A stretch of DNA of 64,000 nt from an uncultured Gemmatimonadales bacterium (GTDB taxonomy: Bacteria; Gemmatimonadota; Gemmatimonadetes; Gemmatimonadales; GWC2-71-9). The notes under the pieces are model-generated. The model saw only the letters and a program-made list of their open reading frames with translations. It was not told the DNA's origin and ran no database searches. Made by a program: the position numbers and the translations under genes. Shown here one piece after another: positions 310-55,932 of this stretch; within the stretch, counting starts at the first letter, position 1, and the number at the start of each line of letters is the position of its first letter. The DNA lies in assembly GCA_963847895.1 (NCBI GenBank), contig CAWKBO010000006.1, positions 83,451 to 147,450 of the forward strand, in the 5' to 3' direction.

Positions 310-320
310 TGGGGTCTGTC

Positions 321-353: not shown

Positions 354-374
354 GGGCTGCTCAAGCGGAAACTG

Positions 375-754
<380 letters not shown>

Positions 755-3681: not shown

Positions 3682-4883
<1,202 letters not shown>

Positions 4884-4884
<1 letters not shown>

Positions 4885-4939
4885 GTCGATGGTCGAGGGC
4901 TGATGGTCGATCGACGATCGACCATCGACGATCGACCCC
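4884..4939. repeat. Heptamer-array hairpin: GGTCGAT-type units facing CGACCAT/CGACGAT units
   Basis: Eight consecutive 7-nt units. Left units are the reverse complement of right units (TGATGGTCGAT / ATCGACCATCG, 10 of 11). Lies between tuf and rpsJ. Confidence 0.8.
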
Positions 4940-12392: not shown

Positions 12393-12764
12393 ATGCGGCC
12401 GATTCACAGCCCGAAGACCGAGCGCCAGCGGCGCTATCGCCGCCACCTCCGCGTGCGTCGGCGCGTCGCCGGCACCGCCGAGCGTCCCCGGCTGGTGGTC
12501 TTCCGCTCGCTCAAGCACATCTACGCCCAGCTGGTCGACGACGACCGCGGCGTGGCGCTGCTTGGCGTGGCGGACACCAGCGACGGGATCGCCATCGACG
12601 GTGCCGGCAAGACGGCCCGCGCCGTGGCGGTGGGCAAGCTGCTGGCCGACAAGGCCAAGGCGGCGGGGATCACCCGGGTGGTGTTCGACCGCGCCGGCTA
12701 CCAGTATCACGGCCGCGTGAAGGCGGTCGCCGACGGCGCCCGCGAGGGCGGATTGGAGTTCTGA
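12393..12764 (+). CDS. rplR: 50S ribosomal protein L18
   Basis: [30 protein letters not shown]...[24 protein letters not shown]. Confidence 0.96.
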
Positions 12765-13492
12765 TGAGCGACGAGACGACAGCGGCCGGCAGCACGCCGG
12801 AGCAGGGCAGCGCGCCCGCCGCCGCCACCCCGAGTGCGCCCGCTCCCAGCGCCCCGAGCGCGCCCGCGCAGGGCCAGGGTCGCGGCGGTGGTCGCGGTCG
12901 GGGTGGTCAGGGTGGTCGCGGCGGCCAGGGTGGCCGCGGTGGCCGTGGCGGCCCCGGGCGAGGTCGCGATCGCCGTGACGACCGCGACGGCGACAAGGAC
13001 ACGGTCGAGAACGTGATCGCCATCAACCGCGTCGCCAAGGTGGTCAAGGGCGGCCGGCGGTTCTCGTTCAACGCCCTCGTGGCGGTCGGCGACGGCAAGG
13101 GCCGGGTCGGCATCGCCACCGGCAAGGCGAACGAGGTGGCCGAGGCGGTCCGCAAGGCGGTCGAGGCCGCCAAGCGCGCAATGCAGCTGATTCCCCGGAC
13201 CGGCTCGACGATCCCGCACGAGATCATCGGCGAGCACGGCGCCGGCCGCGTGCTGCTCAAGCCCGCCGCGAGCGGTACCGGCGTGATCGCCGGTGGCCCG
13301 GTGCGCGCGGTGCTCGAGTGCGCCGGGATCACCGACATCCTCACCAAGAGCCTCGGCTCGAACAATCCGCACAACATGGTGCGGGCCACGATGGACGGGC
13401 TCGCCGACCTGGTGTCGGTCGAGCGGGTGGCCCGCGAGCGCGGCATCGAGGTCGACCAGGTCGGCTACCGCGCCCGCCAGCAGGAGGGCTGA
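12764..13492 (+). CDS. rpsE: 30S ribosomal protein S5 with a ~75 aa N-terminal low-complexity (RGG-rich) extension
   Basis: Core [28 protein letters not shown]...; N-terminus carries [29 protein letters not shown]. Confidence 0.93.
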
Positions 13493-14226: not shown

Positions 14227-15541
14227 TGACCGCGCCGCGCATGCCGGGCCTCAGCATGGACGAGGAGCTCAAGAACAAGCTCCTCTTCACCGCCCTGGCG
14301 ATCCTCATCTACCGGGTCGGCGCGCACATCGTGGCGCCGGGCGTGGACGTGGCCGCGCTGCCAGGCCTCAATCCCCAACACCAGCGGCCGGGACCTTCTT
14401 CCGGCTCTACGACGCCCTCGGCGGCGGCCTCTCCCGGGCGACGGTCTTCGCGCTCGGGATCATGCCGTACATCTCGGCGTCGATCGTCTTCCAGCTCGCC
14501 GGCGGCGTGGTGCCGACCGTGGGCAAGATGCAGAAGGACGAGGAGGGCCGGAAGAAGCTCACCCAGTGGACCCGCTACCTCACGGTCGTGATCTCGCTCT
14601 CCCAGGCCTACACCTTCGCCCTGTTCACCGAGGGGCTCCGGCGCCGTCCCCAATCCGGGCTTCGTGAGCCGGATGATGATGGTGGTCATGCTCACGACCG
14701 GCGCGATCTTCGTCATGTGGCTGGGCGAGCAGATCACCGAGCGCGGGATCGGCAACGGCATGAGCCTGCTGATCACCTTGTCGATCCTCGAGCGGCTCTG
14801 GCCGGGCACCTTCCACATGATCGGCTTCGTCCGCGACGGGGTGATGTCCTTCCCGGCGGCGGTGCTCTTCCTGGCGGTGCTGGTCGGCATGATCGCCGCG
14901 GTGGTGGCGATGACGATCGCCGCGCGGCGGATCCCGATCCAGATCCCGCGCAAGGTCATGGGCCGGGGCCGGATCCGCGAGGGCCAGAAGACGTTCATCC
15001 CGATCCGGCTGATCACCGCCGGCGTGATGCCGATCATCTTCGCGCAGACGATCATCATCGTGCCGGGCACCCTGGCGCAGTTCACGCAGGCCGGGATGCT
15101 GCGCGAGGTGGCCGACTTCCTGGTTCCCGGTCGACCTGCCGTACAACATGCTCTTCGCGGTCATGATCGTGCTGTTCAGCTACTTCTACACGTCGATCAT
15201 CTTCAACTCGGTGGACCTGGCGGAGAACCTGAAGAAGCAGGGCGGGTTCATCCCGGGCGTGAAGCCGGGCGCCGCCACCGCCGACTACATCGACGGCGTG
15301 CTGGGCCGGATCACCCTGCCGGGGCGCTCTTCCTGGCGGTGGTGGCGCTCATCCCGATCATCGTCGCCAAGGTGCTCGGCGTCCCAGCCTCCAGTTCGGC
15401 GGGACCTCGGTGCTGATCGTCGTCGGCGTGCTGCTGGACACCATCGCCCAGATCGAGCAGCACCGCACGCTCCGCAAGTACGACGGCTTCATGAAGACCG
15501 GCCGGGTCAAGTTCCGGGGGCGGCAGCAGCGGTTCGCATGT
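14226..15541 (+). pseudogene. secY: Preprotein translocase SecY, at least 5 frameshifts as assembled; 3' end approximate
   Basis: SecY segments appear in alternating frames: LFTALAILIYRVGAHIVAPGVD / GIMPYISASIVFQLAGG...RKKLTQWTRY / VMWLGEQITERGIGNGMSLLI / NLKKQGGFIPGVKPG / LLDTIAQIEQH. Confidence 0.9.
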
Positions 15542-15548
15542 GACGGGC

Positions 15549-15638
15549 GAGTCGATGAGGTCGTGAGTCGTGAGGGGCGATCGCCCGGCGCGCACCCGCA
15601 GGTGCCGGACGTCCAATCTCAGGACTCAGGACTCACGC
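15549..15638. repeat. Heptamer-array inverted repeat (GTCGTGA units facing CTCAGGA units), same unit family as 16977-17077
   Basis: Left GTCGTGAGTCGTGAG, right CTCAGGACTCAGGACTCAC. The central part contains the palindrome GGGCGATCGCCC. Confidence 0.7.
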
Positions 15639-15660
15639 CTACACTCCCGGGAGTTGATCC

Positions 15661-16231
15661 ATGGATATCCTTCTCCTGGGCCCGCCGGGCGCCGGCAAGG
15701 GCACCCAGGGCGCGCTGCTCGCCGAGCGCTCGGCCTGCCCAAGTTCGCCACCGGTGATCTCCTGCGCGACGCGGTCGCGCGCCGGGCACGCCGCTCGGCC
15801 TCCAGGCCAAGGCGGTGATGGAGGCGGGCGAGCTGGTGAGCGACGACATCATCCTCGGCGTCATCCGGGACGAGCTGGCCAAGCCGCGCGCCGCGCGGCG
15901 GCGTCATCTTCGACGGCGTGGTGCGGACCATCCCGCAGGCGGAAGGGATGGCCGCGCTGCTCGCGGCACGGGGCCGCCGGATCGACCACGTGCTGTTCTT
16001 CGACGTGCCCGACGAGGAAATTCTCGCCCGGCTCGACAAGCGGCGCGCGATCGAGGGCCGGGCCGACGACGACCCCGCGGCGGTCGCCCGGCGGCTGCAG
16101 GCCTACCGGGAGCAGACGGCGCCGGTGCTGGCCTGGTACGGCGAGCGCGGCGGGGTCACCCGGATCGATGCCGTGGGCGACGGTGGCGGCGATCGCCGAC
16201 CGGGTGCGCAACGCGCGTCGACGCCGGATGA
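15661..16231 (+). pseudogene. adk: Adenylate kinase, about 5 frameshifts as assembled
   Basis: MDILLLGPPGAGKGTQ / [14 protein letters not shown] / [20 protein letters not shown] / [10 protein letters not shown]...[16 protein letters not shown], found in different frames. Confidence 0.88.
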
Positions 16232-16978
16232 TCACCCTCAAGTCGCCCCGCGAAATCGACACGATGGCCCATGCCGGCGCCATCGTCGCACGACACGCTG
16301 GCCTGCTGCGCGGACTGGTCCGGCCGGGCATCACCACCGAGGACCTCGACCGGAGGCCGAGGTTCATCCGCGAGCCACGCGGCGCCACGCCGTCGTTCAA
16401 GGGCCTCTACGGCTTCCCCAAGACCCTCTGCACCTCGATCGACGAGGAGATCGTCCACGGCATCCCCTCGCCCAAGCGGGTCCTGCGCGAGGGGAACATC
16501 GTGTCAGCGTCGACGTCGGGGTCTGCTCGACGGCCTGCACGCCGACTCGGCCACCACCATTCCGGTGGGCGAGATCGCGCCCGAGATGCACCCGGCTGCT
16601 CGAGGTGACCCAGGAGTGCCTCGCGGCCGGGATCGCCGCAGCGCGGGTCGGCAACCACGTCGGCGACATCGGCCACGCGGTCCAGACGGTGGCGGAGGCG
16701 CGGGGTACGGCGTGGTGCGGGAACTGGTGGGCCACGGCATCGGCACGCGCTTCCACGAGGAGCCGCAGGTGCCCAACTACGGCACGCCCAAGCCGGGGGC
16801 CGGCTGCTCGAGGGGATGACCATCGCCATCGAGCCGATGATCACCATGGGCGCACCGGCCACCCGGACCCTCGCCGACAAGTGGACCGTGGTCACCGCGG
16901 ACGGGTCCCTGTCGGCCCACTTCGAGCACACCGTGGCGATCACCGGCGACGGACCGGGGATCCTGACGACGGGGTAGT
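16228..16978 (+). pseudogene. map: Type I methionine aminopeptidase, several frameshifts as assembled
   Basis: [17 protein letters not shown]...[25 protein letters not shown]...; later segments ([29 protein letters not shown]) sit in other frames. ATGA overlap with adk. Confidence 0.88.
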
Positions 16979-17077
16979 CGTGAGTCCTGAGTCCTGAGTC
17001 GTGAGAGCTGCAAGGCCGGTACCCCGCTCGGGATGCCGGCCTTGTTCCACCCCTCAGGACTCAGGCCTCCGACTCAC
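16977..17077. repeat. Heptamer-array hairpin (GTCGTGA/GTCCTGA arms) enclosing a GC-rich inner hairpin
   Basis: Left arm GTCGTGAGTCCTGAGTCCTGAGTCGTGAG, right arm CCTCAGGACTCAGGCCTCCGACTCAC. Fills the gap between convergent map and the suhB-like gene. Confidence 0.85.
17011..17044. terminator. Inner hairpin of the element; candidate bidirectional terminator
   Basis: 9-bp stem CAAGGCCGG/CCGGCCTTG with a 16-nt loop between convergent genes; no U-tract. Confidence 0.4.
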
Positions 17078-17864
17078 CGCCAGCGTCCAGCAGCCACGTG
17101 CATCGCCGGGTTGCCCGCCACGACCGCCCCGTGCTCGATCCCCAGGTCCCGCCCGTCGAGTCGCGTCACCACGCCGCCCGCCTCCCGCACCAGCAGCGGT
17201 CCCCGCCGCGATGTCCCACGGGGCCAGCCGCAGCTCCCAGAAGCCGTCGAGATGCCCGGCCGCGACGTCGAGCCAGGTCGAGCGCCGCCGCACCGGCCCG
17301 GCGGATGCCGCTGGTGCGTGGCCAGACCGGCCGAACTGGGCTGAGATATGCCGGCAAGCTGGTCGGGGTCCTTGAACGGGAAGCCGGTGCCGATCAGGGC
17401 GTGGCCGGGATCGGCGATGCGCCGAGACCCGGAGCCGGCTGTCCATCGCACCAGGCGCCGCCGCCGGCGCCAGCCGGTGGCTCGCCGCATGCGTCGGCAC
17501 CTCGAAGACCACGCCGGCCTCCAGGGCGCCGTCGACCGCCGCGGCGATCGAGACGGCCCAGGCGGGAAGCCGTGCAGGAAGTTGGTGGTGCCGTCGAGCG
17601 GGTCGACGATCCAGACCGAGTCCCGGGTCGTCGATCAGGTCGGGACTCCCTTCCTCGCCCATCATCCGGCCGTCGGGCTCGGCCCGCAGCAGCGTCTCGG
17701 TGATGATCGCCTCGGCGGTGCGGTCGACCTCGGTGACGAAGTCGCTGGTGGCCCTTGGCGGTCCACGCGGCGGGGCCGGGCGGCGCGGCCCGCCGCAGGT
17801 AGGCCGCCGCCGCGCCGGCGGCCCGCTCCGCGAGCCGGGCGAGGCGCTCGGCGTCGCGGGTCAT
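17061..17864 (-). pseudogene. Inositol monophosphatase family protein, multiple frameshifts as assembled; 3' end 17061 or 17074
   Basis: Fragments MTRDAERLARLAERAAGAAAAYLR, MMGEEGSPDLIDDPG, AWAVSIAAAVDGALEAGVVFEVP, LRLAPWDIAAGT and VVAGNPAMH lie on the minus strand in different frames. Confidence 0.75.
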
Positions 17865-17900
17865 CTTGCCGCCCTTCCGGGCTGCGGGTAGCTTGCCGCC

Positions 17901-18901
<1,001 letters not shown>

Positions 18902-18905
<4 letters not shown>

Positions 18906-19977
18906 TGCCGCGACTGGCCTGCGATGCTCGATCGAGCGGATGCATCAAGGCGGCGGTCGAGCGCGGCGCGTCGGACCTCCATATCAAGGCGGGCGACGTC
19001 TTCCGCGCCCGGATCGACGGCAAGCTGGTGCCGCTCACCAAGCAGCGGCTCACCCCGGAGCAGACCCGGGCCGATGGCGCTCAGGCTGATCGCCAGCGAC
19101 GAGGACCGAGGCCCGCCTCGACACGCTGCGGGACTTCGATTGCTCCTGGGGAATGCCGGGGGTGGGGCGGTTCCGGGTCAACGTGCTGCGCCAGCGGTCG
19201 TCGCTTCATGATCGTGATGCGGGTCATCCCGTTCGCGGTGCCGACCCTCGAAGAGCTCCGAGCTGCCCGAGAGGTGCTCCGACTCTGGCCGAGTGCGGAC
19301 GCGGGCTGGTGCTGGTGACCGGGGTGAGCGGCAGCGGCAAGAGCTCGACCATCGCGGCGATGGTGCACCACATCAACCGCACCACCGCACCGGCACATCG
19401 ATCACCATCGAGAACCCGATCGAGTTCCTGCACCGCGACATCAAGTGCTCGGTGACCCAGCGCGAGGTCGGGATCGACACCGAGACGCTGGCCATCGGGC
19501 TCCGGGCCGCGCTCCGGCAGGATCCCGACGTCATCGTCGTCGGGCGACATGCGCGATCCGCAGGCGCTCGACACCGCGATCCAGGCGGCCGAGACCGGCC
19601 TGCTGGTGATCGGCATCGATCGCCTGCCCCGGACGCCGCCTCGGCGTTGCTGCAGGTCGGTGGCGATGCTGATCCCGATGAGCGCGACATCGGCCGGATC
19701 CGGTTTGCCGAGGTGCTCGCACGGGGTCGCTCGCCCAGCGCCTGGTCCCCCGGGCAGGACGGGAGAGGGGCGGCCGGCCGGTGGTGGAGTTGGTCGAGGC
19801 CACCGAACCGATCCGCGACGGCGCTCAGTGACGGGCGCCGATCCGGCGAGCTCAAGAAGGCGATTGACCGCCGGCCGGGAAGGACGGCCACGCGAGACCT
19901 TCGCGCAGCACCTCGACCGAACTGGTGAAGCCGGGCGCCACCCGCCGGCAGATTGTGGGGGCCTCGGCGGCGCGTAA
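18902..19977 (+). pseudogene. pilT: Type IV pilus twitching-motility ATPase PilT, multiple frameshifts as assembled
   Basis: ASDLHIKAGDVFRARIDGKLVPL / GLVLVTGVSGSGKSSTIAAMV (Walker A) / ITIENPIEFLHRDIKCSVTQREVG...LRQDPDVIVVG. Confidence 0.85.
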
Positions 19978-20010
19978 GGGGCCGTTTTCCGGTCGCAGCC
20001 GGGGTGTCGC

Positions 20011-21302
20011 GTGTTCGACCGGAAGCACACCTGTGTCGTCGTGGTCGGCGCCCAGTGGGGCGACGAAGGGAAGGGCAAGCTGGTCGACGTCCTCTCCGAG
20101 CAGGCCGACCTGGTGGTGCGCTACCAGGGCGGCGCCAACGCCGGCCATACGGTGGTGATCGGCGACCGCCAGTTCATCCTCCACCAGATCCCCTCCGGCA
20201 TCCTCCACCCGGCGGCGACCTGCGTCGTCGGCAACGGCGTGGTGCTCGATCCGGAGACCTTCTTCGCCGAGCTCGACGGGCTCGGCGAGCAGGGCATCGA
20301 CATCGCCGGCCGGCTCTTCGTCTCGGAGCGGGCGCACCTGGTGCTGCCGTATCACAAGCTGCTCGACGCCGGCCGAGCGAGCGGCAGCAACAGATCGGGA
20401 CCACCGGGCGCGGGATCGGCCCGGCCTACGAGGACAAGATCGGCCGCCGCGGGGATCCGGGTGGCCGACTCTGCCGGCAGCGGCGCGCGTGCGAGCCGCC
20501 TGCTCGCCGAGCGGATCGACCGGGCCAACCAGCTGCTGGAGCTGATGGGGGCGTCCGAGCGGGCCTCGTCGACGAGCACGTGGCCCTGCTGCGCAGCGGG
20601 TCGGCGCCACGCTGCTGCCCCTGGCCACCGACACCGGGCCTGGTGCACCAGGCGGGCACCGCGAGCCGGCCGCCGGGTGCTCCTGGAGGGCGCCCAGGGG
20701 GCGCTGCTCGACGTCGACCACGGCACCTACCCGTTCGTGACCTCCTCGAACACCACGGCGGGCGGCGCCGTCGGTCGGCGCCGGGATCGGCCCGACCGCG
20801 ATCGACGGCGTGCTCGGGGTGGTGAAGGCCTACACCACCCGGGTCGGCAACGGCCCGCTGCCGACCGGCAGCCGCCGGGCGTGCTCGAGGAGCAGCTCCG
20901 CGAGTTGGGCGACGAGTTCGGGGCCATCACCGGGCGGCCGCGGCGCTGCGGCTGGTTCGACGCCGAGGTGGTCCGCTACTCGGTGCGGGTGAACGGGCTC
21001 ACCGGGCTGGCGGTGACCAAGCTCGACGTGCTGGACGCATTCGACGAGATTCCGGTCGGGGTGGGCTACAAGCTCGACGGGGAGCGGTGCGACGGAATGC
21101 CGAGCGAGGTGGAGGCGCTGGAGCGGGTCGAGCCGGTCTACGAGATGCTGCCCGGCTGGCAGGCGAGCACCGCCGGCGCCGGTCGCTGGCCGACCTGCCG
21201 CCCGCGGCGCGGGCCTATCTCGACCGGCTGCAGGACCTGGCCGAGGCGCCGATCCGCTACGTGAGCGTGGGGACTCGGCGGGACCAGATCATCGAGTGCT
21301 AG
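20011..21302 (+). pseudogene. purA: Adenylosuccinate synthase, several frameshifts as assembled
   Basis: VVVGAQWGDEGKGKLVDVLS...VVRYQGGANAGHTVV...; the C-terminal part ...[29 protein letters not shown]... is in frame again. Confidence 0.9.
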
Positions 21303-21449
21303 GACGAGAGACGATAGGCGAGAGACGATAGACGATAGACGATAGACGATAGACGATAGACCGATAGACGCCCGAAGGCCAGCATCCCCATCGAGGAGCT
21401 GGCCTTCGTCGCGGTCACGTCTATCGTCTATCGTCTATCGTCTCTCGTC
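21303..21449. repeat. Heptamer-array hairpin: (GACGATA)n left arm, (GTCTATC)n right arm, inner GC hairpin
   Basis: About 10 left units (GACGAGA, GACGATA, GGCGAGA, GACGATA x5 ...) and about 5 right units. Fills the whole purA / minus-strand gene intergenic gap. Confidence 0.92.
21373..21408. terminator. Inner hairpin; candidate bidirectional terminator
   Basis: 11-bp stem CGAAGGCCAGC/GCTGGCCTTCG with a 14-nt loop between convergent stop codons. Confidence 0.45.
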
Positions 21450-21450
21450 A

Positions 21451-23521
21451 TCACTGCGCCTGCAGCTTCTCGAAATAGTTGGCCACGCCGAGGTCGTTGA
21501 GCCAGACCGGGTCGAGCTCGTAGTAGCGGCTCTTGATGAACCGCCCGGTGGTCGGGAAGTACGGCGGCGGATTGACCGCGCCGCAGTTGTCGTAGGCGTG
21601 CGCCTCGGCCCAGCCCGAGGAGTGCGCGTTGCCGACCGGGCAGTAGGTGCAGCAGTCGACCTTGCCCATCGCCAGGCCGCCGGTGATCCGGATGCAGCCC
21701 GGCGGCGTCCGCCAGCAGTTCCGCTGGTCGCCGAGGAGTTGAAGGTCCCCGGTGCATCCGGCAGGGCGGTGTCGGGCCCGGGTACGCCGGGGAGGCCGGT
21801 GGTGAAGAAGTTGCCCTTGCCCGACGAGCCATCGCCGGCGGCGAGGAAGAACATGTTGTAGTTCTCGTCGGCCGGGGTGTCGTCGTAGCCGCCGTAAATG
21901 GTGTTGTTGACCGGAACGGCGTCTGGAGGTTGTTGTCCTCGATCAGCACGTTGAGCGTCGCGATCGCGCCGAAGATGTCGCCCTCGGCGTCGCATTGGTG
22001 CCGGGGGTGTTCTAGTACAGGAGGTCGTCGGCCAGCACGATGTTGCCGGTCGCGAACACCGAGACCGGCCGCGGAGCCGGCCGCTGATGGCGACGTCGCC
22101 GGTGACGAAGATCACGCCCTTGAAGTTCGGGTTCTTGCCGAGCGGGATCAGGTAGTCGGCGTCGCCCCGGATGCGCGGAGACCGAGCGCGTGCCGGGCCG
22201 AGTCGCCGGGGCTGCCAGGCACCCATGCCGCGTTGCGTGGCGCTGTTGGTCACCGCCGGGATCGGGCGTGAGAACGGTGTCAGCCGGTCGAGTGGTAGAG
22301 CTGCGGGTCGCCGCCGAGGTAGCAGCGCTGCTCGCTCGGGGTGCCGAGACGTTGTCGAGCGGCGAACGGCGGATACCGGTCACGCCGCGTGACAGCGCCC
22401 ATCGCACCCATCGCGGGCGTAGCTGTGCTTGGTGCTCGAAGTGCCCGACGTGGCGTTGTAGACCGAGTCGTAGATCTCCGCCGCGGTGAACCAGCCGTAG
22501 GTGCCGTTCATCCGCACCCGCGCCCGCAGTTCCGGGAGACCATGTTGGGGTCTTTGACTGACACGCGGCGATGCCACTCGGCACGGTTGGGCCAGCGGCG
22601 TCCGGTGGCGTAGGCGAGCACCGAGTCCGAGGTGCCCCCGGAGTGCCAGCACCCGCACGTAGCCCTCGTCCCACTGGATCATCCCGTCGCCGTTGGCGTC
22701 GATGGAGAGGAACTCGAGCCGGAGGCCCGGGTGTGGGAGCCGAGGTGTCGGCGCGGTGATGTCATAGTCGCCGTCCGCGGCGTCGGCGTCCTGGGCGTAC
22801 TGACTGCATCAGCGAGATCGGGCGGGGGTCGGCCAGGCGATCGGCGGCACGCGCCGGTCTTGAGCCCGCGGTGAAGTTGCCCGAACTCTGGTTGGCTGAC
22901 GAGCCGACCACGGAGGCGGGCCCGGCGAACAGCGACCTTGGGGCTGCAGCACCCGCTCTGGAGCCGGAGCATGTCGTTGGAGAAGAACGGGCCGTTGATC
23001 GACTCGCCGCAGCCGTAGACGCCGCAGCCGCTCCAGTCGTTGATCGCCACGGCGAACTTGGCCCACGACTCCTGGGTCATCAGCAGCCGCCGGGCGGCGA
23101 CCGCGCCGCGGTCGTTGCGGATCACCGAGAGTGCTCAGGCGAAGTTGCTGCCGTACTGGCCGGCGGTCGCGGGCCCGCCGGTCCGGCCGCCGGTGCGGCC
23201 GACGTAGAGCGATCGGGTCATCCGGGGAGCACGTTGCCCGAGGCGTCGGTCACCTGGGCTTCGACGCGATGGTGGTGTAGCTGTTGAGCGGCAGCAACGA
23301 GTCGAAGTTGCCGCGGTTGACCGAGTCGCGAATCATCTCGAGCCCGCCATTGGCGGCCGACTGCAGCGCGGCCTCGGTGGCGGTGAACCTGGTGGTCAGC
23401 CGGGCGCCCGACGCGATCATGATGGCGCCCATCGCCATCGCGGCGACGGCGATCGAGACGAGCAGGGCGAGCACCAGGGCGGCGCCCCGGCGTTCGGATG
23501 GCTTGCGCGGACGGACCGCAT
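21451..23521 (-). pseudogene. Large pilus-associated protein (PilX-type N-terminus plus a DUF4900-like region), many frameshifts as assembled
   Basis: N-terminus RGAALVLALLVSIAVAAMAMGA; internal QESWAKFAVAINDW...INGPFFSNDML and NPNFKGVIFVTGDVAISG. Family assignment is from recalled motifs only. Confidence 0.5.
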
Positions 23522-23636
23522 GGGAACTCTCCCGCTCAGGGGGCGCTCAGGGTGACGTGGAGGTACGACCGTGGACGTGTCGGGGTGCAGTCCTGCGCCG
23601 CAATGCCGAAGATGTAGGCCTCGCCCGGGGTCCTGG

Positions 23637-24727
23637 TCAGAAGACGTTGGTGTCGTACGGGTCTGGCCCGCCTCGGCGCGGACCACCAGGATCGGGGCTG
23701 TCCACACCGTGGCCGACGACGCGGCGCTAGAGGATGTACTGCCGCACGTCGACCTCACCGGCATCCTGGTCGGTGGACCGCGACCAGCACCAGGTGCGAC
23801 CTGCGCCGAGCCCGGTGCCGACCTGGGTGGTGGTGAGGCTTCCCGGGGCGATCGGGGCGCGGCCGCAGACGGTGGGCATGTCGACGCCGTTGTTGGGGAT
23901 CTCGATGATCTAGGTGAACTCTCGGGTCCGCTCCGCGGTGCCGGTGTGGCCGTTGGTGATCCGGAAGTTGATCCGGACCGCCCGGACCGAGTCGGGCCGG
24001 ACATCGTCGGCGCTGTCGCTGGCCGAGATGCCGCTCACCAGCTCGCGCCGGATCAGTGGCAGCAGGGAACCGGTCGCGGTGATCAGGGTGTCGCCGGTCG
24101 ACAGGATGCGCTGCATCAGGTACTGGAAGAACGGCCGAGCCGTTGCTGGCCGGGAGGATGTTCCGGGCGATCACCTCCGGGGTGCCGGTTGATCCGCTCC
24201 CAGAGGACATAGTCGTCGGTGCGCGCGGTGGCGTCATCGGGCTGGAAGAAGAGCAGGTAGGTCTCGGCCGGGGACGAGCGCGCCGTTGCCCATCCGGTAG
24301 GTGGTCGAGGGATAGGTGTAGCTGGGCGAGGAATTGGGGATCGTCGTGGCCGGGGCCGCGTCCCAGACGATCGCCTCGGTCGCCGGCGACATCCGGGTTC
24401 CAGTAGGCCGCCCAGCGCATGTCGATGGTGTCCCGCTCCGGCGTAGTCGGTGTTGAAGGCCACGACGTCGTTCTTGCCGTAGACCAGCATCGGCTGCTGG
24501 CCGGTGACGCCGGCCCCCATGGTCCGGATCACCCGCTCCGACGGGCTCGATCGAGTCGCGGGCGTTCTGGAGCAGGTCGAACCGCTCGGTGTTCTTCCGG
24601 AACGAGACGGCTCTGGGACCGGAAGAGCTAGACGGTCGCGCCCATGATCAGCGACCAGCATGGTGACGACGATCAGCAGCTCGATCAGCGAGAAGCCGGC
24701 GGTCGGAACGAGGTTGGGTCGCATCAT
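23637..24727 (-). pseudogene. PilW-like type IV minor pilin, frameshifted as assembled
   Basis: N-terminus MMRPNLVPTAGFSLIELLIVVTMLV (prepilin methylation motif); ATGA overlap with the upstream pilin gene. The body is split over at least 3 frames. Confidence 0.6.
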
Positions 24728-25116
24728 GGACTCGCGATCACGGCGGTGACGGCGACGGTGTCGCGCATGGCCGGGTCGGTGACGCGGACCGTGACCGTGG
24801 TGCGGTCGCGGTTGCCGCTCTGGTCGCGGACGAGCGTGGTCAGCCGGCGCATCCGGGGATACCCCTGGAACCCGGTCGTGTCGGCACCCGCGGAGCCACT
24901 GCCGTACAGGTTGCCCAGCCGCGTGTATCGCGGGTCGGCCCGGATCAGCTCGAGGCGGGCCGTGGCGGTGCTGCTGCCGATCAGCCGGATCGAGGCGTCC
25001 CCCATGCTGCGGGCATAGCTCGCCGAGAACTTCGCGAAGGTGGTGGCCACGATCACGAGAATCACGACCGTGATCAGCACCTCGATCAGGGTGAAGCCGT
25101 TGCGGCGACGGTGCAT
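24724..25116 (-). CDS. Type IV pilin-like protein (PilV-like minor pilin)
   Basis: MHRRRNGFTLIEVLITVVILVIVA N-terminal cleavage/methylation motif; 130 aa intact ORF. Confidence 0.75.
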   Translation of the reverse strand: MHRRRNGFTLIEVLITVVILVIVATTFAKFSASYARSMGDASIRLIGSSTATARLELIRADPRYTRLGNLYGSGSAGADTTGFQGYPRMRRLTTLVRDQSGNRDRTTVTVRVTDPAMRDTVAVTAVIASP

Positions 25117-25680
25117 TCAGTTCCCCCGGACCCAGCTGTGGGTGGCATAGGAGTAGACCACCGCGCGGCCGGTGGCCCGGGTGATCTCGACCGCCCGGCA
25201 ATAGTGGCAGTCGCTGTCGGTCACCGGACTGTGGATGTAGAACGACCCGCTGATCGAGGCGGTCCCGTCACGGCGGAAGATCAGTGAGGTCAGTTCGCCG
25301 CCTGCGGCCGGTGCCGGCACCGCCGCGACCGTCCCCTGTCCCAGGGTGAAGCCGTCGTCCAGCACGCTGAAGATCACCCGCTCCCCGCTGTCGAGGGTGC
25401 CGTTGTTGTTGGCGTCCTCATGGATTCGCAGCCTCGTGGGCGACATCTGGGTCACCCGCACGTCGGTCTGCAACGACACCGCCGTCCGCTGCGCCTGGCT
25501 CAGGTCGGCAAGGACCCCTCGCGCCACGCTGTTCGCGCGGTACTGGACCCAGTCGAGATGGGACACCGCAATCGCCGCCAGGATGCCGATCAGGACGATC
25601 ACGATCAGCATCTCGATCAGGGTGATGCCGTGCCGGGCCGCCCGGGGGTCGGACCGTCGGGAGAAGGGGAGGGGAATCAT
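25117..25680 (-). CDS. GspH/FimT-like pseudopilin
   Basis: ARHGITLIEMLIVIVLIGILAAIAV methylation motif; ATG at 25680 inside ORF 25117..25899. Confidence 0.7.
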   Translation of the reverse strand: MIPLPFSRRSDPRAARHGITLIEMLIVIVLIGILAAIAVSHLDWVQYRANSVARGVLADLSQAQRTAVSLQTDVRVTQMSPTRLRIHEDANNNGTLDSGERVIFSVLDDGFTLGQGTVAAVPAPAAGGELTSLIFRRDGTASISGSFYIHSPVTDSDCHYCRAVEITRATGRAVVYSYATHSWVRGN

Positions 25681-25904
25681 GACCTCCAAGAATACGCAAG
25701 AAACCGGCCCGATGGCACCTGTTTTCCACATTCCCTTCCAGCGAGCCACTTTGGCCCCCGGCCCGGATGGGCCCGCCGGCGTGGGGGCACGGCAAAATGC
25801 CATACCGGGTCCCCCGGGTTCGTGGAGCCAAACCGCTGTCACGATTAGCTTTCTGGCTCCCGACGGCCCCAAAGGGCACCACCCCGATACCCAAAGCATC
25901 GACC

Positions 25905-27242
25905 ATGGCCGACACGACCCTGATGGACAAGCTCGTGTCGCTCTGCAAGCGGCGCGGATTCGTCTTCCAGTCCTCCGAGATCTACGGCGGCCTCGGTTCG
26001 GTCTGGGACTACGGCCCGCTGGGCGTCGAGCTCAAGAGGAACGTCAAGGACCGCTGGTGGCGGGCCATGGTCCAGGCCCGGGACGACATCGAGGGCCTCG
26101 ATGCCGCCATCCTGATGCACCCCAAGGTCTGGGAGGCGTCGGGCCACGTGCGCGGGCTTCACCGACCCGCTGGTCGACTGCCGGACCTGCAAGGCGCGCT
26201 TCCGGGCCGACAAGCTCGAGGACGCCGCCTGCCCCCAGAAGCCGAGCAAGCAGCCCGGGCGAGCACACCACCTGCGAGCTGACCGAGCCGCGCCTGTTCA
26301 ACCTGATGTTCAAGACCTTCATGGGGCCGGTGGAGGAATCGGCCGCGGTGGTCTATCTGCGCCCCGAGACGGCCCAGGGGATCTACGTCAACTACCTCAA
26401 CGTCCTGCAGGGCTCGCGCCAGAAGATCCCGTTCGGCATCGCCCAGATCGGCAAGGCGTTCCGCAACGAGATCACGCCCGGCAACTTCATCTTCCGGACC
26501 CGCGAGTTCGAGCAGATGGAGATGCAGTTCTTCGTGCAAGCCGGGCAGCCGACGAGGAGTGGTTCGAGCAGTGGCGCGAGCTCCGGATGGCCTGGCACCA
26601 CGACCTCGGCCTCGACCCCGGCCAAGCTGCGCTGGCACCAGCACGGCCCGGGCGAGCTGGCCCACTACGCCAAGGCGGCCTACGACATCGAGTACGAGTT
26701 TCCCTTCGGCTGGAAGGAGATCGAGGGGATCCACAACCGCACCGACTTCGACCTGCAGCGCCACCAGGAGGCCTCCGGCAAGAAGCTCGAGTACTTCGAC
26801 CAGGCCACCAACGAGCGGTTCCTGCCCTACATCGTCGAGACCTCGGCCGGCGCCGACCGGGTCACCCTGACGGTGCTGGTCGATGCCTATCGCGAGGAGC
26901 AGGTCGAGGGGGAGACCCGCGTGGTGCTCGGGCTTCCACCCGCCATCGCGCCGATCAAGGTGGCGGTGTTTCCGCTGGTCAAGAAGGACGGGATGCCGGA
27001 GTTGGCCACGCGGCTGTACCACGACCTCAAGCCGCACGTGCCTGCGTTCTACGACGACAGCGGTGCGATCGGCCGGCGCTACCGGCGGCATGGACGAGGC
27101 CGGCACGCCGTTCTGCATCACGGTGGACGGACAGACGCTGCAGGACGGCACCGTGACGGTGCGGCACCGGGATTCGATGGCGCAGGAGCGGGTGGCGCGG
27201 ATCGATCAGGTGCCGGCCTGGATCCGCGATCGCCTCGGCTGA
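25905..27242 (+). pseudogene. glyQS: Glycine--tRNA ligase (dimeric GlyQS type), several frameshifts as assembled
   Basis: [41 protein letters not shown] / FNLMFKTFMGP...YLRPETAQGIYVNY...FRNEITPGNFIFRTREFEQMEMQFF. Confidence 0.9.
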
Positions 27243-27250
27243 GGATCGAC

Positions 27251-28544
27251 ATGAGGACGGGCGATGAGCACGCACCGCGGAAGATCGGCGAGCGAGTGCT
27301 GCGGCCCGAGAGCTCGATGATGAGCTACGGGTACGACCCGCCGCTCTCCGAGGGGGCGGTCAAGTGCCCGATCTTCCAGACCTCGACCTTCGCCTTCGAG
27401 ATCGGCGGAGGCGGGCAAGGCGTTCTTCGAGGTGGCCTACGGACTGCGCGAGCCGGAGTGGTGGCGAGGAAACTGGGGCTGATCTACAGCCGGCTCAACA
27501 ACCCGGACCTGGAAATCCTCGAGGACCGGCTGGCGCTCTGGGATGATGCCGAGTCGCGCCGCGGTCTTCGCCAGCGGCATGGCGGCCATCACCACCTCGC
27601 TGCTCGCGTACCTGCGCCCGGCGACGTGCTGGTGCACAGCGAGCCGCTCTACGGCGGCTCGGACCATTTCATCCGCCACATCCTCCCCGCCTGGACATCG
27701 AGATGATTCCAGTTCCCGGCGGGTGTACCGATGTCGGCCTCGCTCGAGGCCGAGCTGCGGCAGGCGATCGGCGGCCGCCGGTGGCCGCCGTGCTGGTCGA
27801 GACACCGGCCAATCCGACCAACGCCTGGTGGACATCGCCGGCCCTCGTCGCCGATTCACCGCCTCCCTGGCCCGTGGCGACCGGCGCCCCCCGTGATGGT
27901 GGACAACACCTTCCTCGGCCCGATCTTCCAGCAGCCGCTCGATCACGGCGCCGACCTGGTGCTCTACTCGCTCACCAAGTTCATCGGCGGGCACAGCGAC
28001 GTGATCGCCGGCGCCGTCTTTGGCAGTCTCGAGGCGATGGCGCCGGTCCGCGCCCTGCGCACCTTCATGGGCACCATGGCGGGCCCCTGGTCGGGCTGGC
28101 TGCTGCTGCGGAGCCTCGAGACGCTCAAGATGCGGATGGAGGCTGGCGCCCGAAGAATGCCGGTCGGGTGGCCGACTTCCTGGCCGGGCACCCGAAGGTG
28201 CGCCAGGTGAACTGGCTGGGGCTGCTCCCGGTCGATGACCCGATGTGCGAGGTCTACCGATCGGCAGTGCGCGGACCCGGGGCGATGATCTCGTTCGAGG
28301 TGCACGGCGGCGAGGCCGAGGCGTTCCGGTTCCTCGAACGCCCTCACGCTGGTGAAGCTGGCGGTGTGCCTGGGTGGCACCGAGTCGCTGGCGGAGCATC
28401 CGCAGACGATGACGCACGCCGACGTCGACCCGGCGGATCAGGCGCGCATCGGGATCACCCCGGCGCTGGTGCGCCTGTCGGTCGGGATCGAGGACGCCGA
28501 CGACCTCGCTGCCGATCTCGGTGCGGCGCTCGACGCCGGTGTAG
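27251..28544 (+). pseudogene. Cys/Met-metabolism PLP-dependent enzyme (cystathionine gamma-synthase/beta-lyase family), frameshifted; no in-frame stop before the next gene
   Basis: AVKCPIFQTSTFAF / [18 protein letters not shown] / GGTESLAEHPQTMTHA...LVRLSVGIEDADDL, in different frames. Confidence 0.75.
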
Positions 28545-28552
28545 CGGGGGCG

Positions 28553-29251
28553 ATGCAGCTCGACGCCTTCGAGGCCATGGTGCGGGAGCTCAGCCGCGAG
28601 ATGCCCGACCGCTACTTCGACGGCGTGTCCGAGATCGTGGTGTCACCCCGCGCCGTTCCGCACCCGGTCCACGGCGACGTGTTCACGCTCGGGGAGTGCA
28701 TCGCATTGCCACTCGACGGCGAAGGCCCCGAGTCGGTGCAGAGTCGAGTCGTGCTCTATCACGGCTCGTTCCGGGCGCTCGCCGAGCTCGACCCGGCGTT
28801 CGACTGGCGTGAGGAGGCGTGGGAGACGCTTACTCACGAGCTGCGGCATCACGTCGAGTGGCGGGCCCGCCGCGACGACCTCGGCGCCTCCGACGAGGCC
28901 GCCGACCAGAACTGGGCTCGGCAACGCGGCGAGCCATTCGACCCGCTCTTCCACCTCGATGGCGAGGAACTGGCGGATGGGGTCTTCCAGGTGGACGAGG
29001 ACTGGTTCCTCGACCGGGTGGTGCGCGAGATGCCCCACCGGGTCGATATTGGCTGGCACGGCAGGCGCTACTTCGTGACGATGCCCCGGGCGGCCGTCCT
29101 GCCGGCGTTCGTGGCGCTCGACGGGGTAGAGGAACCCCCTGCGGGCGACCTGGTGCTGGTGTTGCGCCGCCGGCCGCGATGGCGGGACCTCTTCCGCCCA
29201 ACCCGGCCCTGGCAGGGCCGCGCAACTGTCTCCTTGCTCGAGGGCGACTGA
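28553..29251 (+). CDS. Zincin-like metallopeptidase family protein (HExxH: THELRHH) with a ~100 aa C-terminal extension
   Basis: ATG 28553 lies inside ORF 28352..29251. The layout resembles small 'metallopeptidase family protein' (Zincin_1-like); assignment from memory of the family. Confidence 0.55.
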   Translation: MQLDAFEAMVRELSREMPDRYFDGVSEIVVSPRAVPHPVHGDVFTLGECIALPLDGEGPESVQSRVVLYHGSFRALAELDPAFDWREEAWETLTHELRHHVEWRARRDDLGASDEAADQNWARQRGEPFDPLFHLDGEELADGVFQVDEDWFLDRVVREMPHRVDIGWHGRRYFVTMPRAAVLPAFVALDGVEEPPAGDLVLVLRRRPRWRDLFRPTRPWQGRATVSLLEGD

Positions 29252-29253
29252 CA

Positions 29254-29523
29254 ATGGTGCACGAGACCATGACGACCCTGGCACCCGATGAGGTGCTCGA
29301 CCGCGCCGAGTCGTTCTTTGGCGAGCGGGTGCCGCTCCAGGCGGCGTTTCCCGAGCGACGCGGACCGACCCATCTGGTCTTGCGTGGCCAGGGCGGGGAA
29401 GAGGTCGCGATCGCGGTCCGGCCCGCCGAGGCCGGCACCCGGGTGCGCGGTTCCACGCTGCTCTTCGACCAGGCACTGGCGCGTTTCCTCACCACCCTCC
29501 CGCCGCTTCCGGGGGTCGCATGA
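29254..29523 (+). CDS. Hypothetical protein (89 aa)
   Basis: ATG 29254; translationally coupled (ATGA) to the next ORF. No motif recognised. Confidence 0.5.
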   Translation: MVHETMTTLAPDEVLDRAESFFGERVPLQAAFPERRGPTHLVLRGQGGEEVAIAVRPAEAGTRVRGSTLLFDQALARFLTTLPPLPGVA

Positions 29524-29771
29524 GCGCCTTGCGCGTGACGGTGCTCGACACGTGGGACGAGATCGCCCTGCCGCTGGAGGCCAACCAGACCGTGGCGGCG
29601 ATCAAGCAGGCGGCACTCGAGGCGGCGCGGGTCCCCGACGATCCCGGTGCCTTCGCGGTGAAGTATCTCGGGGCCGAGTTGCGCGATGAGCAGCAGACCG
29701 TGGCGGAGGCCGGATTTCCCGACGGCGCCGCGTTGATCGTCCTGCGTCGTCGGCGCCGCGCCGTGCGCTGA
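29520..29771 (+). CDS. Small ubiquitin-like (beta-grasp) protein candidate, 83 aa, no C-terminal GG
   Basis: By-eye alignment to ubiquitin: LRVTVLD.../...TVAAIKQAALEAARVP.../...KYLGAELRDEQQTVAEAGFPDGAALIVLRRRRR versus ...[32 protein letters not shown]. Confidence 0.45.
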   Translation: MSALRVTVLDTWDEIALPLEANQTVAAIKQAALEAARVPDDPGAFAVKYLGAELRDEQQTVAEAGFPDGAALIVLRRRRRAVR

Positions 29772-30652
29772 TGACCGCAGTCTTCACCGCGACCGCCTGC
29801 CTGGGCCACGAGGGATTCCCCGAGCAGCCGGCTCGACTCGCCGCGGTGCAGGAGCGGCTGGCCAGCGACGGCCGGTTCGTCCCGCGCGAGGCCCCACCCG
29901 CCGGTCTCGAGCCGCTGGAGCTCCGCCACCCACATGAGTGGTTGCTGACCCTCGAATATCGGGCCGCGCATCGCGAGGACGCCGGGGAGGAGGTGCCACT
30001 GGTGCCCGCCTCCTGGTCGGCGATCCTCGGGGCGGCCGGGGCGGTCGCTGCCGCGGTCGAACACGCGATGCCGGGGCGGGCGGCATTCGCCGCAGTGCGT
30101 CCCCCAGGCCACCACGCGTCGGCCCAGCGAGCGATGGGATTCTGCCCGGTCAACCTGGTCACCGTGGCGGTGGCGATGGCCCGTCGTGCCGGGGCCGAGC
30201 GGGCGCTGATCGTCGACTGGGACGTGCACCACGGCAACGGGACCCAGGAGATCATCCAGGCCGAGGCGGCGACCCGATTCGTCTCGATGCACCAGCATCC
30301 GTGGTATCCCGGCACCGGTCGTGCCGACGAACGCGGGGTCGGCAACTGCTTCAATGTGCCGATGCCCGCCGGCCAGTCACGCGCGGACTACCTCGAGGCG
30401 CTCTGGGACGCCGTCACGGCGGCCACCGACGACTGGAGTCCGGACGCGCTCTTCGTGAGCGCCGGCTACGATGGGATGGCGGGCGACCCGCTCGGTGGCT
30501 TCACCCTCGAGCCGGCCGATTACGCCACCTGGATCACCCGACTCCGCGACCGGTGGCCCGACCGGCCGATGGTGGCACTGATGGAAGGCGGCTACGATCC
30601 CGCCCGCCTCGCGGACGGCGTGCTGAGCACGGTCGAGGCGATGGTAGATTAG
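29771..30652 (+). CDS. Histone deacetylase-family amidohydrolase
   Basis: RPPGHHA...IVDWDVHHGNGTQEI...SAGYDGMAGDPLGGF. Confidence 0.88.
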   Translation: MTAVFTATACLGHEGFPEQPARLAAVQERLASDGRFVPREAPPAGLEPLELRHPHEWLLTLEYRAAHREDAGEEVPLVPASWSAILGAAGAVAAAVEHAMPGRAAFAAVRPPGHHASAQRAMGFCPVNLVTVAVAMARRAGAERALIVDWDVHHGNGTQEIIQAEAATRFVSMHQHPWYPGTGRADERGVGNCFNVPMPAGQSRADYLEALWDAVTAATDDWSPDALFVSAGYDGMAGDPLGGFTLEPADYATWITRLRDRWPDRPMVALMEGGYDPARLADGVLSTVEAMVD

Positions 30653-30696
30653 GGACGAGATCAGCGATCAGAGATCTGCCGTTCGAGGTTCGATAG

Positions 30697-30716
30697 ACCA
30701 GCGGCGCGCCGCTGGT
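30697..30716. terminator. Perfect 20-nt palindrome after the HDAC-family gene (possible terminator stem)
   Basis: ACCAGCGGCG|CGCCGCTGGT; no U-tract. Confidence 0.3.
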
Positions 30717-30820
30717 GTCCGGCTTCGGCATCCAGGACCCCGGCCCGATCCCGAGGCCGACGTCCTTCGTCTCCGTTCCCGGCTCGCGCACCTCGTATCT
30801 CCCCGCCAAGGAACACTGCC

Positions 30821-34257: not shown

Positions 34258-34265
34258 CGCGAGCG

Positions 34266-34404
34266 GCGAACAGCGAACAGCGAACGGCGAAGGGGTGGAC
34301 GAGCGGACCCGGGCCCCGCGGGTCGCCTCTCGCCGGTTGGCTTCCCCGACAGTAACTTCGCCTGTCGCCTGTCGCCTGTCGCCTGTCGCCTGTCGCCTGT
34401 CGCC
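34266..34404. repeat. Heptamer arrays: (GCGAACA)x3-4 at 34266-34293 and (TGTCGCC)x6 at 34363-34404
   Basis: Read directly. The right array is identical in unit to 209-257. The arms are imperfectly complementary (4 of 7 positions per unit plus 7 bp at the base). Confidence 0.85.
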
Positions 34405-34422
34405 CCTATCCTCGAGGCCACA

Positions 34423-41522: not shown

Positions 41523-41626
41523 ACGGGGACAGAGGACGGAGGACGGAGGACGGAGGACGGAGGACAGAGGACGGAGAACAGCAATCTCTGATCTCCGTCC
41601 TCTGTCCTCCGTCCTCCGTCCTCTGT
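41523..41626. repeat. Heptamer-array hairpin: (GGACGGA/GGACAGA)x7 facing (TCCGTCC/TCTGTCC)x5
   Basis: About 35-bp stem with one mismatch and a 14-nt loop. Occupies the entire gap between convergent stops (41522 and 41627). Confidence 0.92.
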
Positions 41627-54037: not shown

Positions 54038-54068
54038 CCGCGGGAACCTCGCAGGGAGTCTGGCGGCT

Positions 54069-55924: not shown

Positions 55925-55932
55925 ATACACGA

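Follow-up and report, generated by a model that had tools for sequence, protein, structure and literature searches.

The stretch of DNA analyzed here (the window) comprises 64,000 nt of contig CAWKBO010000006.1 from an uncultured Gemmatimonadales soil bacterium and contains seven arrays of tandem heptanucleotides, the type example of which fills the gap between purA and a convergent pilus-cluster gene. We interpret them as hairpins at the ends of transcription units, with arms built from, or overwritten by, tandem 7-nt (sometimes 8-nt) repeats, and we give this interpretation an even chance of being correct. The elements are positioned at gene ends, the same sites in most relatives are in a plain-hairpin state, the two arms mirror each other, and both unit and copy number turn over quickly between related genomes.

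The type element, locus 5 in our numbering along the window, is a single hairpin occupying the whole 148-nt gap (21303–21450). It is composed and flanked as follows:

20011 to 21302, plus strand: purA (adenylosuccinate synthetase), present as open reading frame (ORF) pieces in three frames and named after its Gemmatimonadales homologs
21303 to 21372, plus strand: 5' arm of about ten heptamer units, delimited by Tandem Repeats Finder (TRF) and a unit-by-unit layout
21373 to 21408, plus strand: inner GC hairpin with exact coordinates, paired in the minimum free energy (MFE) structure of both strands
21409 to 21450, plus strand: 3' arm, GTCTATC three times, GTCTCTC and GTC, ending 1 nt before the stop of the convergent gene
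21451 to 23230, minus strand: convergent gene, frameshifted in the assembly, homolog of a 616-aa DUF4900-like protein from a type IV minor-pilin (N_methyl) cluster

The 5' arm reads GACGAGA, GACGATA, GGCGAGA, five copies of GACGATA, GACCGATA and GACGCC, and was resolved by TRF as a period-7 repeat over 21303–21370 with 9.6 copies of GACGATA (88% matches). The inner stem of 11 bp pairs CGAAGGCCAGC (21373–21383) with GCTGGCCTTCG (21398–21408) around a 14-nt loop; no T-tract follows this hairpin on its 3' side, and it is probably the original terminator stem of the locus. The 3' arm (TRF: 21418–21449, 4.6 copies of CGTCTAT, 96% matches) mirrors the outermost units of the 5' arm, so that both arms run from the outside GACGAGA and then GACGATA, with the extra GACGATA copies on the left. 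Pairing between the arms reaches 91–100% in several registers; four of the five listed inverted-repeat pairs are offset by a multiple of 7 nt. The RNA folds with an MFE of −92.8 kcal/mol, compared to −47.7 ± 4.3 kcal/mol for dinucleotide shuffles (z = −10.4), and the opposite strand is about equally stable. The first-pass annotation had described this gap as filled by one element of about ten units, an inner 11-bp GC hairpin and about five units, with unequal unit counts and several registers offset by 7 nt, all of which is borne out by these data.

The stop codon of purA (TAG, 21300–21302) shares its register with the array's TAG triplets, while that of the convergent gene appears as TCA on the plus strand (21451–21453). 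The earlier label of the latter as a pilus gene was fair: its DUF4900-like homolog adjoins prepilin-type N_methyl genes in the syntenic contigs L161 and L162, and a tblastn search with the L161 protein matched the window at 21508–21699 (50% identity) and 22880–23227. The gene's own fragments gave no Pfam match. Both syntenic contigs carry a Pyr_redox_2 (pyridine-nucleotide-disulfide) oxidoreductase gene between purA and the pilus cluster (L161, 11369–12427; L162, 11357–12337). The window lacks this gene there (no tblastn match), and the locus 5 hairpin therefore stands at a rearranged junction.

The first-pass annotation reported the same architecture at six further loci. TRF returned period 7 at all seven, with 2.6–13.9 copies, and four of the six are array-armed hairpins, whereas locus 6 is poorly complementary and locus 1 lacks a partner in the window:

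Locus 1, 174 to 271, plus strand: array in one orientation, (GGTNACC)5 followed by (TGTCGCC)7, 13.9 copies by TRF
Locus 2, 4884 to 4939, plus strand: loop-less array hairpin between tuf (TAG 4882–4884) and rpsJ, arms GGTCGAT and TCGACNA, z = −5
Locus 3, 15549 to 15638, plus strand: array hairpin past secY (TGA 15541–15543), arms GAGTCGT and CTCAGGA, z = −3
Locus 4, 16977 to 17077, plus strand: array hairpin between map and a convergent inositol-monophosphatase-like gene, units GAGTCGT and GAGTCCT, z = −12
Locus 6 (34266–34404 in the first-pass annotation), 34259 to 34404, plus strand: two arrays, (GCGAACA)3.7 and (TCGCCTG)6.7, z = −1.6
Locus 7, 41523 to 41626, plus strand: array hairpin filling the gap between a Gly-zipper protein gene (TAG 41520–41522) and the convergent GGT gene (stop 41627–41629), z = −13

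All seven loci are located at operon boundaries: the upstream side of the rpsL promoter, tuf and rpsJ, secY and the next gene, map and its convergent neighbor, purA and the pilus gene, priA and the aquaporin gene, and the Gly-zipper gene and GGT. The strongest folds belong to loci 4, 5 and 7 (z = −10 to −13), and at locus 4 the arms enclose an inner GC hairpin (17011–17044), as they do at locus 5. Locus 6 lies between priA (TGA 34255–34257) and the aquaporin gene (ATG 34423), and its arms reach a complementarity of 71% only. No inverted partner arm of locus 1 was found within the window, its fold z is 0, and the partner was either lost or never present.

Period 7 stands out both in the window, where seven arrays have this period and each other period from 4 to 12 is represented by none or one, and in a wider set of 161 sequences (2.1 Mb), made up of 160 loci fetched with GGT in addition to the window itself. 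Counting arrays of at least three units, this set contains 10 arrays of period 5, 11 of period 6, 45 of period 7, 15 of period 8, two of period 9, and one each of periods 10 and 12. A Markov-1 simulation of all 161 sequences yielded no array at periods of 7 or more, and the arrays thus exceed chance. Many arrays of the wider set are paired in inverted orientation, with a loop or an inner GC hairpin between them; such inner hairpins persist in loci 4 and 5 and in the relatives L005 and L062. Acidobacteriota contigs also carry arrays (L074, L080, L156 and L159). The closest GGT relatives of the window, from both metagenome and genome scans, are found in Gemmatimonadales metagenome-assembled genomes (MAGs) at no more than 74% identity, with nothing above, and the purA and EF-Tu homologs carry the same Gemmatimonadales taxon names.

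Chance, or an assembly artefact, is hardly credible as an explanation. The window assembly is indeed noisy: both purA and the convergent gene are distributed over several frames, and the assembly is probably an indel-rich, long-read one. Exact copy numbers and odd units such as GACCGATA are therefore unreliable to the base. (In the syntenic long-read contigs L161 and L162, purA is fragmented likewise.) However, the architecture recurs in many independent MAGs and metagenome contigs, including megahit (k141), SPAdes (NODE) and long-read assemblies, and the array hairpins are identical across samples of one species-level cluster, the P0129 clade, where short arrays of 2.6–4.4 units have equal counts in all samples and point changes are the sole difference. 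Given this recurrence and identity, the arrays are not an artefact, and the simulated sequence speaks against chance; the heptamer-array feature is real and non-random. Arrays also interrupt assemblies. The short-read contigs L011, L013, L022 and L025 end within heptamer or octamer arrays just past the GGT stop codon, and at four of the 13 array-bearing GGT sites described below the contig end falls inside the array. Since arrays break assemblies, they are probably under-counted in short-read MAGs.

We compared the site 3' of GGT among 87 Gemmatimonadota relatives. Seventy were array-free, 13 carried arrays of period 7 or 8, and four had arrays of other periods. About half of the 70 array-free sites fold significantly (54% with z < −2; median z −2.1). 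The units at the array-bearing sites differ and include GACGGAAG, GCGGGGCA, GTGAGAA, GGCGGAC, CATCGGC, GGGAAAC and GAGGGAA. Closer relatives extend this picture to other genes. L161, whose purA N-terminus is 84% identical, has array hairpins past secY (GGTGAGA-type units), past purA (GTGAGCG opposite CCGCTCA) and at other genes, whereas L162 (80% identical) has plain hairpins at the places where L161 has arrays, and no array in 20 kb. L163 (EF-Tu 98% identical) has a plain hairpin past tuf, where the window has locus 2, and L165 has a plain GC hairpin at the same site. The array-free state of 70 of the 87 GGT sites, the plain hairpins of L162, L163 and L165, and the retained inner GC hairpins together argue for a plain hairpin as the ancestral form.

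The ortholog of locus 1 in L163 consists of (GGCGACA)12, a spacer of about 84 nt and about four imperfect TGTCGC-type units, located directly before the same rpsL promoter. The unit TGTCGCC is common to both genomes, with seven copies in the window and about four in L163; the unit is therefore inherited while its copy number differs.

The tuf genes provide a further set of sites. In one Gemmatimonadales species cluster (L166–L174), most contigs carry a hairpin of GAGTC units past tufB (tuf-secE-nusG). In L172 such a hairpin is found past tufA (fusA-tuf-rpsJ) instead, and L165 and L170 have a plain hairpin past tufA. The pattern points to gene conversion between the tuf copies in which the 3' hairpin is carried along.

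Within an element, the arms are mirror copies down to their variant units; most of the difference between them is in how many homogeneous inner units they contain. At locus 7, for example, both arms follow the pattern ACAGAGG-(ACGGAGG)n-ACAGAGG-ACGGAGA, where n is 4 in the left arm and 2 in the right. The arms of locus 6 are each uniform internally and have drifted apart (GCGAACA and GGCGACA), indicating that homogenization within an arm outpaces any process that matches the arms to each other. Slipped-strand mispairing is favored as the source of the arrays because period 7 and then period 8 dominate where no array is expected at periods of 7 or more, because the arms share the order of variant units and differ in copy number, and because the TGTCGCC unit that locus 1 shares with its L163 ortholog has a different copy number in each.

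Contrary to the first-pass annotation, which spoke of different heptamers at the loci, units are shared between loci. Loci 3 and 4, which flank one gene, have GAGTCGT and GAGTCCT in common, and (TGTCGCC)n is found at both locus 1 and locus 6, which are 34 kb apart. In L161, GTGAGCG-type units occupy three sites and AGGTCGA lies on either side of one gene; GAACCGT occurs twice in L022, and GGCTCGGC three times in L020. The GAGTCGT/GTGAGTC unit occurs at non-orthologous loci in at least five genomes, among them the window (secY and map), L003 (a different gene), L161 (a Cys/Met-metabolism enzyme gene) and the P0129 clade (tuf). Seeding of arrays from an NNG-TGA-G stop context might explain part of this sharing. 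Related unit pairs numbered 195 against about 93 expected, an excess inflated by strain duplicates. Single-linkage clustering of units at no more than one mismatch chained 55 of 87 arrays into one group and was uninformative. A separate observation concerns L020, where two octamer arrays of one unit (GACGGTAA and its complement) are inverted about 500 nt apart (4183–4241 and 4750–4797); they do not form a compact hairpin and may enclose a small gene or a long-range stem.

Unit sharing, together with the contrast between the array-rich L161 and the syntenic L162, keeps alive the main rival explanation. According to it, the elements are a dispersed REPIN- or MITE-like family, copied by transposition or by ectopic or short-range conversion, or kept by a lineage-specific trans-acting enzyme; terminator positions would be tolerated landing sites, and each genome would hold a small unit repertoire. 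This would account for the units shared within the window, L161, L022 and L020, for the recurrence of GAGTCGT/GTGAGTC at different genes across genomes, and for short-read contigs that often end in arrays, as multi-copy repeats would. We nevertheless consider it unlikely. The ends of the elements are not conserved and no target-site duplication is present at the window loci; the inner parts are wholly different between loci that share a unit; units differ at most loci and turn over at orthologous sites; and the orthologous plain hairpins look replaced rather than interrupted. No transposase or RAYT gene turned up in the fetched DNA, which was not searched systematically, and clustering of arrays by genome was not significant with a crude GC3-based gene caller (p = 0.12).

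The position of arrays relative to genes was assessed in a gap census with the same GC3-based caller, which misses genes in frameshifted assemblies; the GGT site was excluded. Arrays occupied 10 of 82 convergent gaps, six of 227 co-directional gaps and one of 131 divergent gaps, corresponding to an enrichment in convergent gaps over the rest (odds ratio 7, p = 2e-4) and a depletion in divergent ones (p = 0.03). By the stored gene calls, the genes on both sides of the sole "divergent" case are co-directional. Typically, an array begins 0–17 nt past the stop codon or overlaps with it. The enrichment of arrays in convergent gaps and their near absence from divergent ones make a terminator role plausible.

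The arms are also polar. When the arm that directly follows a stop codon is read on the sense strand of that gene, it is purine-rich in 28 elements against nine (p = 0.003). A stop triplet is contained in 17 of 37 sense units versus five of 37 antisense units (sign test, p = 0.008), and the sense count also exceeds the 11.5 expected from composition (p = 0.04). Among 40 curated independent elements from relatives, TGAG occurs in 11 sense units and no antisense unit; GTGAG, the most common 5-mer, in eight and none, a count that high being reached in 1% of random unit sets; and GAGTC in five and none, with 0.34 expected. Since 7 and 8 are not multiples of 3, three consecutive stop-bearing units cover all three frames. 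In several elements, the first unit supplies the stop codon of the gene itself, in array register, as at locus 5 and in the tuf hairpin of the P0129 clade (TGA-GGCA-TGA-GTCC-TGA-GTCC-TGA). Sense and antisense fold energies did not differ consistently, giving no sign of G-U wobble on the transcribed strand.

A different unit signature had been proposed in the first-pass annotation, namely that every unit can be phased as GTCNNNN on one arm and NNNNGAC on the other. This generalization did not hold up. All five unit families of the window contain the triplet, although GGTTACC and GCGAACA lack it; five random units would have some trinucleotide in common with a probability of 0.06, a borderline value. 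In the same 40 elements, GTC/GAC was neither enriched nor strand-biased (GTC in 10 sense versus eight antisense units).

Polarity and promoter proximity bear on another possibility, that the arrays are periodic sites for a protein reading about 7 nt per monomer (on RNA, a protein of the cold-shock-domain or S1 type; on DNA, a regulator near promoters), with the hairpin secondary. The strand-specific (G)TGAG core and the purine-rich sense arms fit such a protein, and so does the region upstream of rpsL. There, the locus 1 array directly precedes a promoter-like site (TTGACC 281–286, 17 nt, TATCAT 304–309), with (TGTCGCC)n immediately upstream of the −35 element in both the window and L163; the unit also lies 18 nt upstream of the aquaporin start codon. 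A single TGTCGCC, the unit of the upstream array, is present in the rpsL leader (317–323) and is kept even in array-free relatives. Binding of CspB to heptamer repeats involves one protein for each unit (reviewed in PMC4679880), and heptamer repeats of Nostoc affect promoter use (bioRxiv 10.1101/2022.06.06.494920). Against this, unrelated units number in the dozens, both across and within genomes, the majority of arrays are found at 3' ends between convergent genes and serve no promoter or translation start, and the paired arm would be out of reach for a single-strand binder. We regard this explanation as quite improbable.

The rpsL leader itself (about 60 nt; window 281–375) contains a GC hairpin and a T-run (GCCGATCCGGGCTTGCCGGGTCGGCC CTGTTTTGGG) after the promoter-like site, which from its sequence looks like a leader attenuator or terminator. 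Promoter-like site and leader are conserved in L163 (6520–6680), L165 (6520–6625) and L172 (4470–4510).

Taken as terminator-position hairpins with slippage-grown arms, the elements could arise as follows. Ordinary hairpins at terminator positions would acquire, in some lineages, tandem 7–8-nt repeats in or beside the stem. The arrays would then expand and contract by slipped-strand mispairing during replication, beside a hairpin that stalls the polymerase, while fold-back or template-switch copying between arms, together with selection for pairing, might keep the arms roughly complementary. Although lacking a U-tract, the RNA stem could serve as a terminator or 3'-end barrier, and would do so bidirectionally between convergent genes. 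Units bearing TGA or TAG would place a stop in all three frames just before the stem, and arrays may abut or supply the stop of the gene. The inner stems at 21373–21408 and 17011–17044 are GC-rich stem-loops shortly past a stop codon, as intrinsic terminators are.

Several observations weigh against this interpretation. No T-run follows the element at any of the seven loci. A scan of 15001–35000 for canonical terminators found five against 3.7 expected and called none of these loci, and in L163 a canonical T-tract terminator precedes the array hairpin, which there is an extra element. Stems of 30–50 bp far exceed what termination needs and, as RNA, would be substrates of RNase III. Locus 1 without a partner and locus 6 with diverged arms imply that pairing is not always maintained, and the about equal stability of sense and antisense folds does not separate a function at the RNA level from one at the DNA level. 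Finally, purely local slippage leaves unexplained both the sharing of units by distant loci and the recurrence of GAGTCGT/GTGAGTC.

A more speculative reading, which we think rather unlikely, is that a lineage-specific system in Gemmatimonadota and some Acidobacteriota seeds and maintains a small repertoire of heptamer arrays, the (G)TGAG and GAGTC units being recognized or copied by a dedicated trans-acting factor. Such a factor could be a hairpin-specific nuclease or transposase, or a protein binding nucleic acid at 7 nt per monomer. If so, the elements would be modules that stop translation in three frames and transcription in both directions, and they would form a new class of dispersed regulatory repeats rather than a by-product of slippage.

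If the stems are working terminators, they would help explain how transcription units are closed in a compact, high-GC phylum that seems to do without U-tract terminators, and terminator predictors would need to allow repetitive, multi-register stems. Heptamer repeats occur in excess in many bacteria, and the plain and array-bearing orthologous sites, with their mirror arms, offer a natural series on the origin of repeats and the co-evolution of arms. In practical terms, the arrays break short-read assemblies, can supply or shift stop codons, and could be very fast strain markers for uncultured soil lineages.

Other repeats and features of the window are set apart from the arrays. Overlapping tandem repeats of periods 9, 18, 24 and 27 at 12809–12957 lie inside an ORF (12764–13492) and are probably a low-complexity Ala/Pro/Gly-rich protein segment. 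Past about 52 kb (window 52000–64000), the GC content drops from about 0.71 to 0.61–0.65. This tail encodes tRNA-Ser (53241–53333), tRNA-Arg (55849–55925), an ArsP-type permease, PrpD/MmgE, a MeaB-like GTPase and LivH/LivM permeases; its LivM is 58% identical to Rhizobiales genes in a plasmid database that is biased towards Proteobacteria. Possible origins of the tail are a chimeric join, the concatenation of two contigs, and an island at tRNA-Ser. Just 3' of tRNA-Ser lies a 75-bp tandem repeat (53542–53796; 3.4 copies, 93% matches), and a 42-bp repeat (1.9 copies; 59337–59435) contains CTCTCCCGCAAGGGGCGAGGGG-type palindromic motifs; both are unrelated to the heptamer arrays. The absence of arrays from the last 12 kb, pointed out earlier, is correct, although at seven per 52 kb about 1.6 would be expected there and the absence carries little weight.

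A number of known identities were considered and rejected. Pairs of DNA uptake sequences acting as terminators, of the Neisseria and Haemophilus type, came into question for pilus genes, but the units here are tandem and differ between loci. CRISPR arrays and integron attC sites are contradicted by the lack of spacers and by housekeeping genes as flanks. The arms are inverted as in a MITE, yet the flanks of loci 5 and 7 (GAGTGCTAG and ATCACTGCG; GGGGATAG and TCAGTATCC) show no direct duplication. A REP or REPIN palindrome does not fit loci that share a heptamer at most and have unrelated inner sequences. At gathering thresholds, Rfam detected two tRNAs and none of the array elements; sub-threshold matches of miRNA-precursor models at loci 5 and 7 (E-value ≤ 1) were taken as generic matches to long hairpins. 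Cyanobacterial STRR were likewise rejected, as the window units differ and the host belongs to the Gemmatimonadales.

In the literature, we found no description of such arrays for Gemmatimonadota or Acidobacteriota, and two large surveys of short tandem repeats and hairpins mention neither these phyla nor heptamers. The earlier statement that this is not a described repeat class is nevertheless too strong, given the inverted heptamer pairs past ORFs in Xanthomonas (PMC4692102), the cyanobacterial STRR and the repeats of Beggiatoaceae (PMC4679880). The GGGAATC repeats of Xanthomonas are the closest precedent. Each genome carries about 186 arrays, of which about 90% are intergenic (Rehm 2015, PMC4692102); they lie on average 28 nt past the upstream ORF, much nearer than to the next one, and in 70–75 cases per genome two convergently oriented arrays are able to form a stem-loop. 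Arrays have 2–26 copies, and their lengths at a given gene are not conserved between related species; the function is unknown (PMC4692102). The elements described here are similarly head-to-tail heptamers, intergenic near the end of the upstream ORF, and arranged in inverted pairs (good pairing at five of the seven window loci, weak pairing at one, and no partner at the remaining one). In contrast to Xanthomonas, they include period-8 variants, start at or a few nucleotides from the stop codon, and occur in Gemmatimonadota and Acidobacteriota.

The two systems also differ in composition. Xanthomonas uses a single G-rich consensus throughout the genome, GGGANTN, which has been read as a G-quadruplex motif, whereas here several unrelated units occur per genome and most are unable to form one. 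A quadruplex explanation, as put forward in PMC4692102 for Xanthomonas GGGAATC and proposed also for Nostoc GGGGAYT, can draw on units with GG runs at 7–8-nt spacing (GGACGGA, GGCGGAC and GGGAAAC). However, the type example (GACGATA) and most window units lack a G-tract of at least three, such tracts arise only at chance junctions among the five unit families in 52 kb of the window, and a complementary arm would compete through ordinary pairing. Quadruplex formation is therefore very improbable here.

The STRR heptamers of heterocystous cyanobacteria are CCCCAGT, TTGGTCA and CAACAGT, and cyanobacterial heptamer repeats lengthen helix P12. Like the arrays of the window, the repeats of STRR (Mazel 1990) and Nostoc are tandemly amplified non-coding heptamers with a few unit families per genome; their units and phylum are different, Nostoc has few inverted pairs (PMC4692102), and its heptamers are often near start codons and promoters rather than stop codons (bioRxiv 10.1101/2022.06.06.494920). 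A paper by Vioque (1997) is cited in the reference list of PMC2858038. The TAACTGA repeats of Beggiatoaceae resemble the arrays as intergenic direct heptamer repeats of patchy phylogenetic distribution, but they have a single unit in 2–6 copies, mostly directly upstream of start codons and in forward orientation, with one inverted case (PMC4679880). As summarized in PMC4679880, the survey of Mrazek (2007) found an excess of 5–11-nt units among long simple-sequence repeats of prokaryotes, heptanucleotides being the most abundant, and proposed polymerase slippage, with a footprint of about 7 nt, as the cause. In that summary the survey covers arrays in general, whereas the paired, inverted gene-end architecture and its polarity are features of the present elements.

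REP, BIME and REPIN sequences (PMC3333891, PMC3116915) are likewise intergenic and lineage-specific, with inverted copies in a long hairpin, often at 3' ends or between convergent genes, and roles in transcription termination and in the regulation of mRNA decay have been proposed for REPs (PMC3333891, PMC3116915). REPs, however, are conserved palindromes of 20–40 nt at hundreds of loci with a cognate RAYT, while here a 7-nt unit is common to some loci and the arms are tandem. The likeness to Rho-independent and bidirectional terminators consists in a GC-rich hairpin just past stop codons, enrichment between convergent genes, a purine-rich upstream and pyrimidine-rich downstream arm, and plain hairpins at the same sites in relatives; the differences are the missing U-tract, stems of 30–50 bp instead of 5–15 bp, and repetitive, multi-register arms. 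Set against all these systems, the new points are the orthologous terminator sites in plain and array-bearing states, the mirror-image arms, the bias towards convergent gaps, and the strand-specific (G)TGAG and three-frame-stop polarity.

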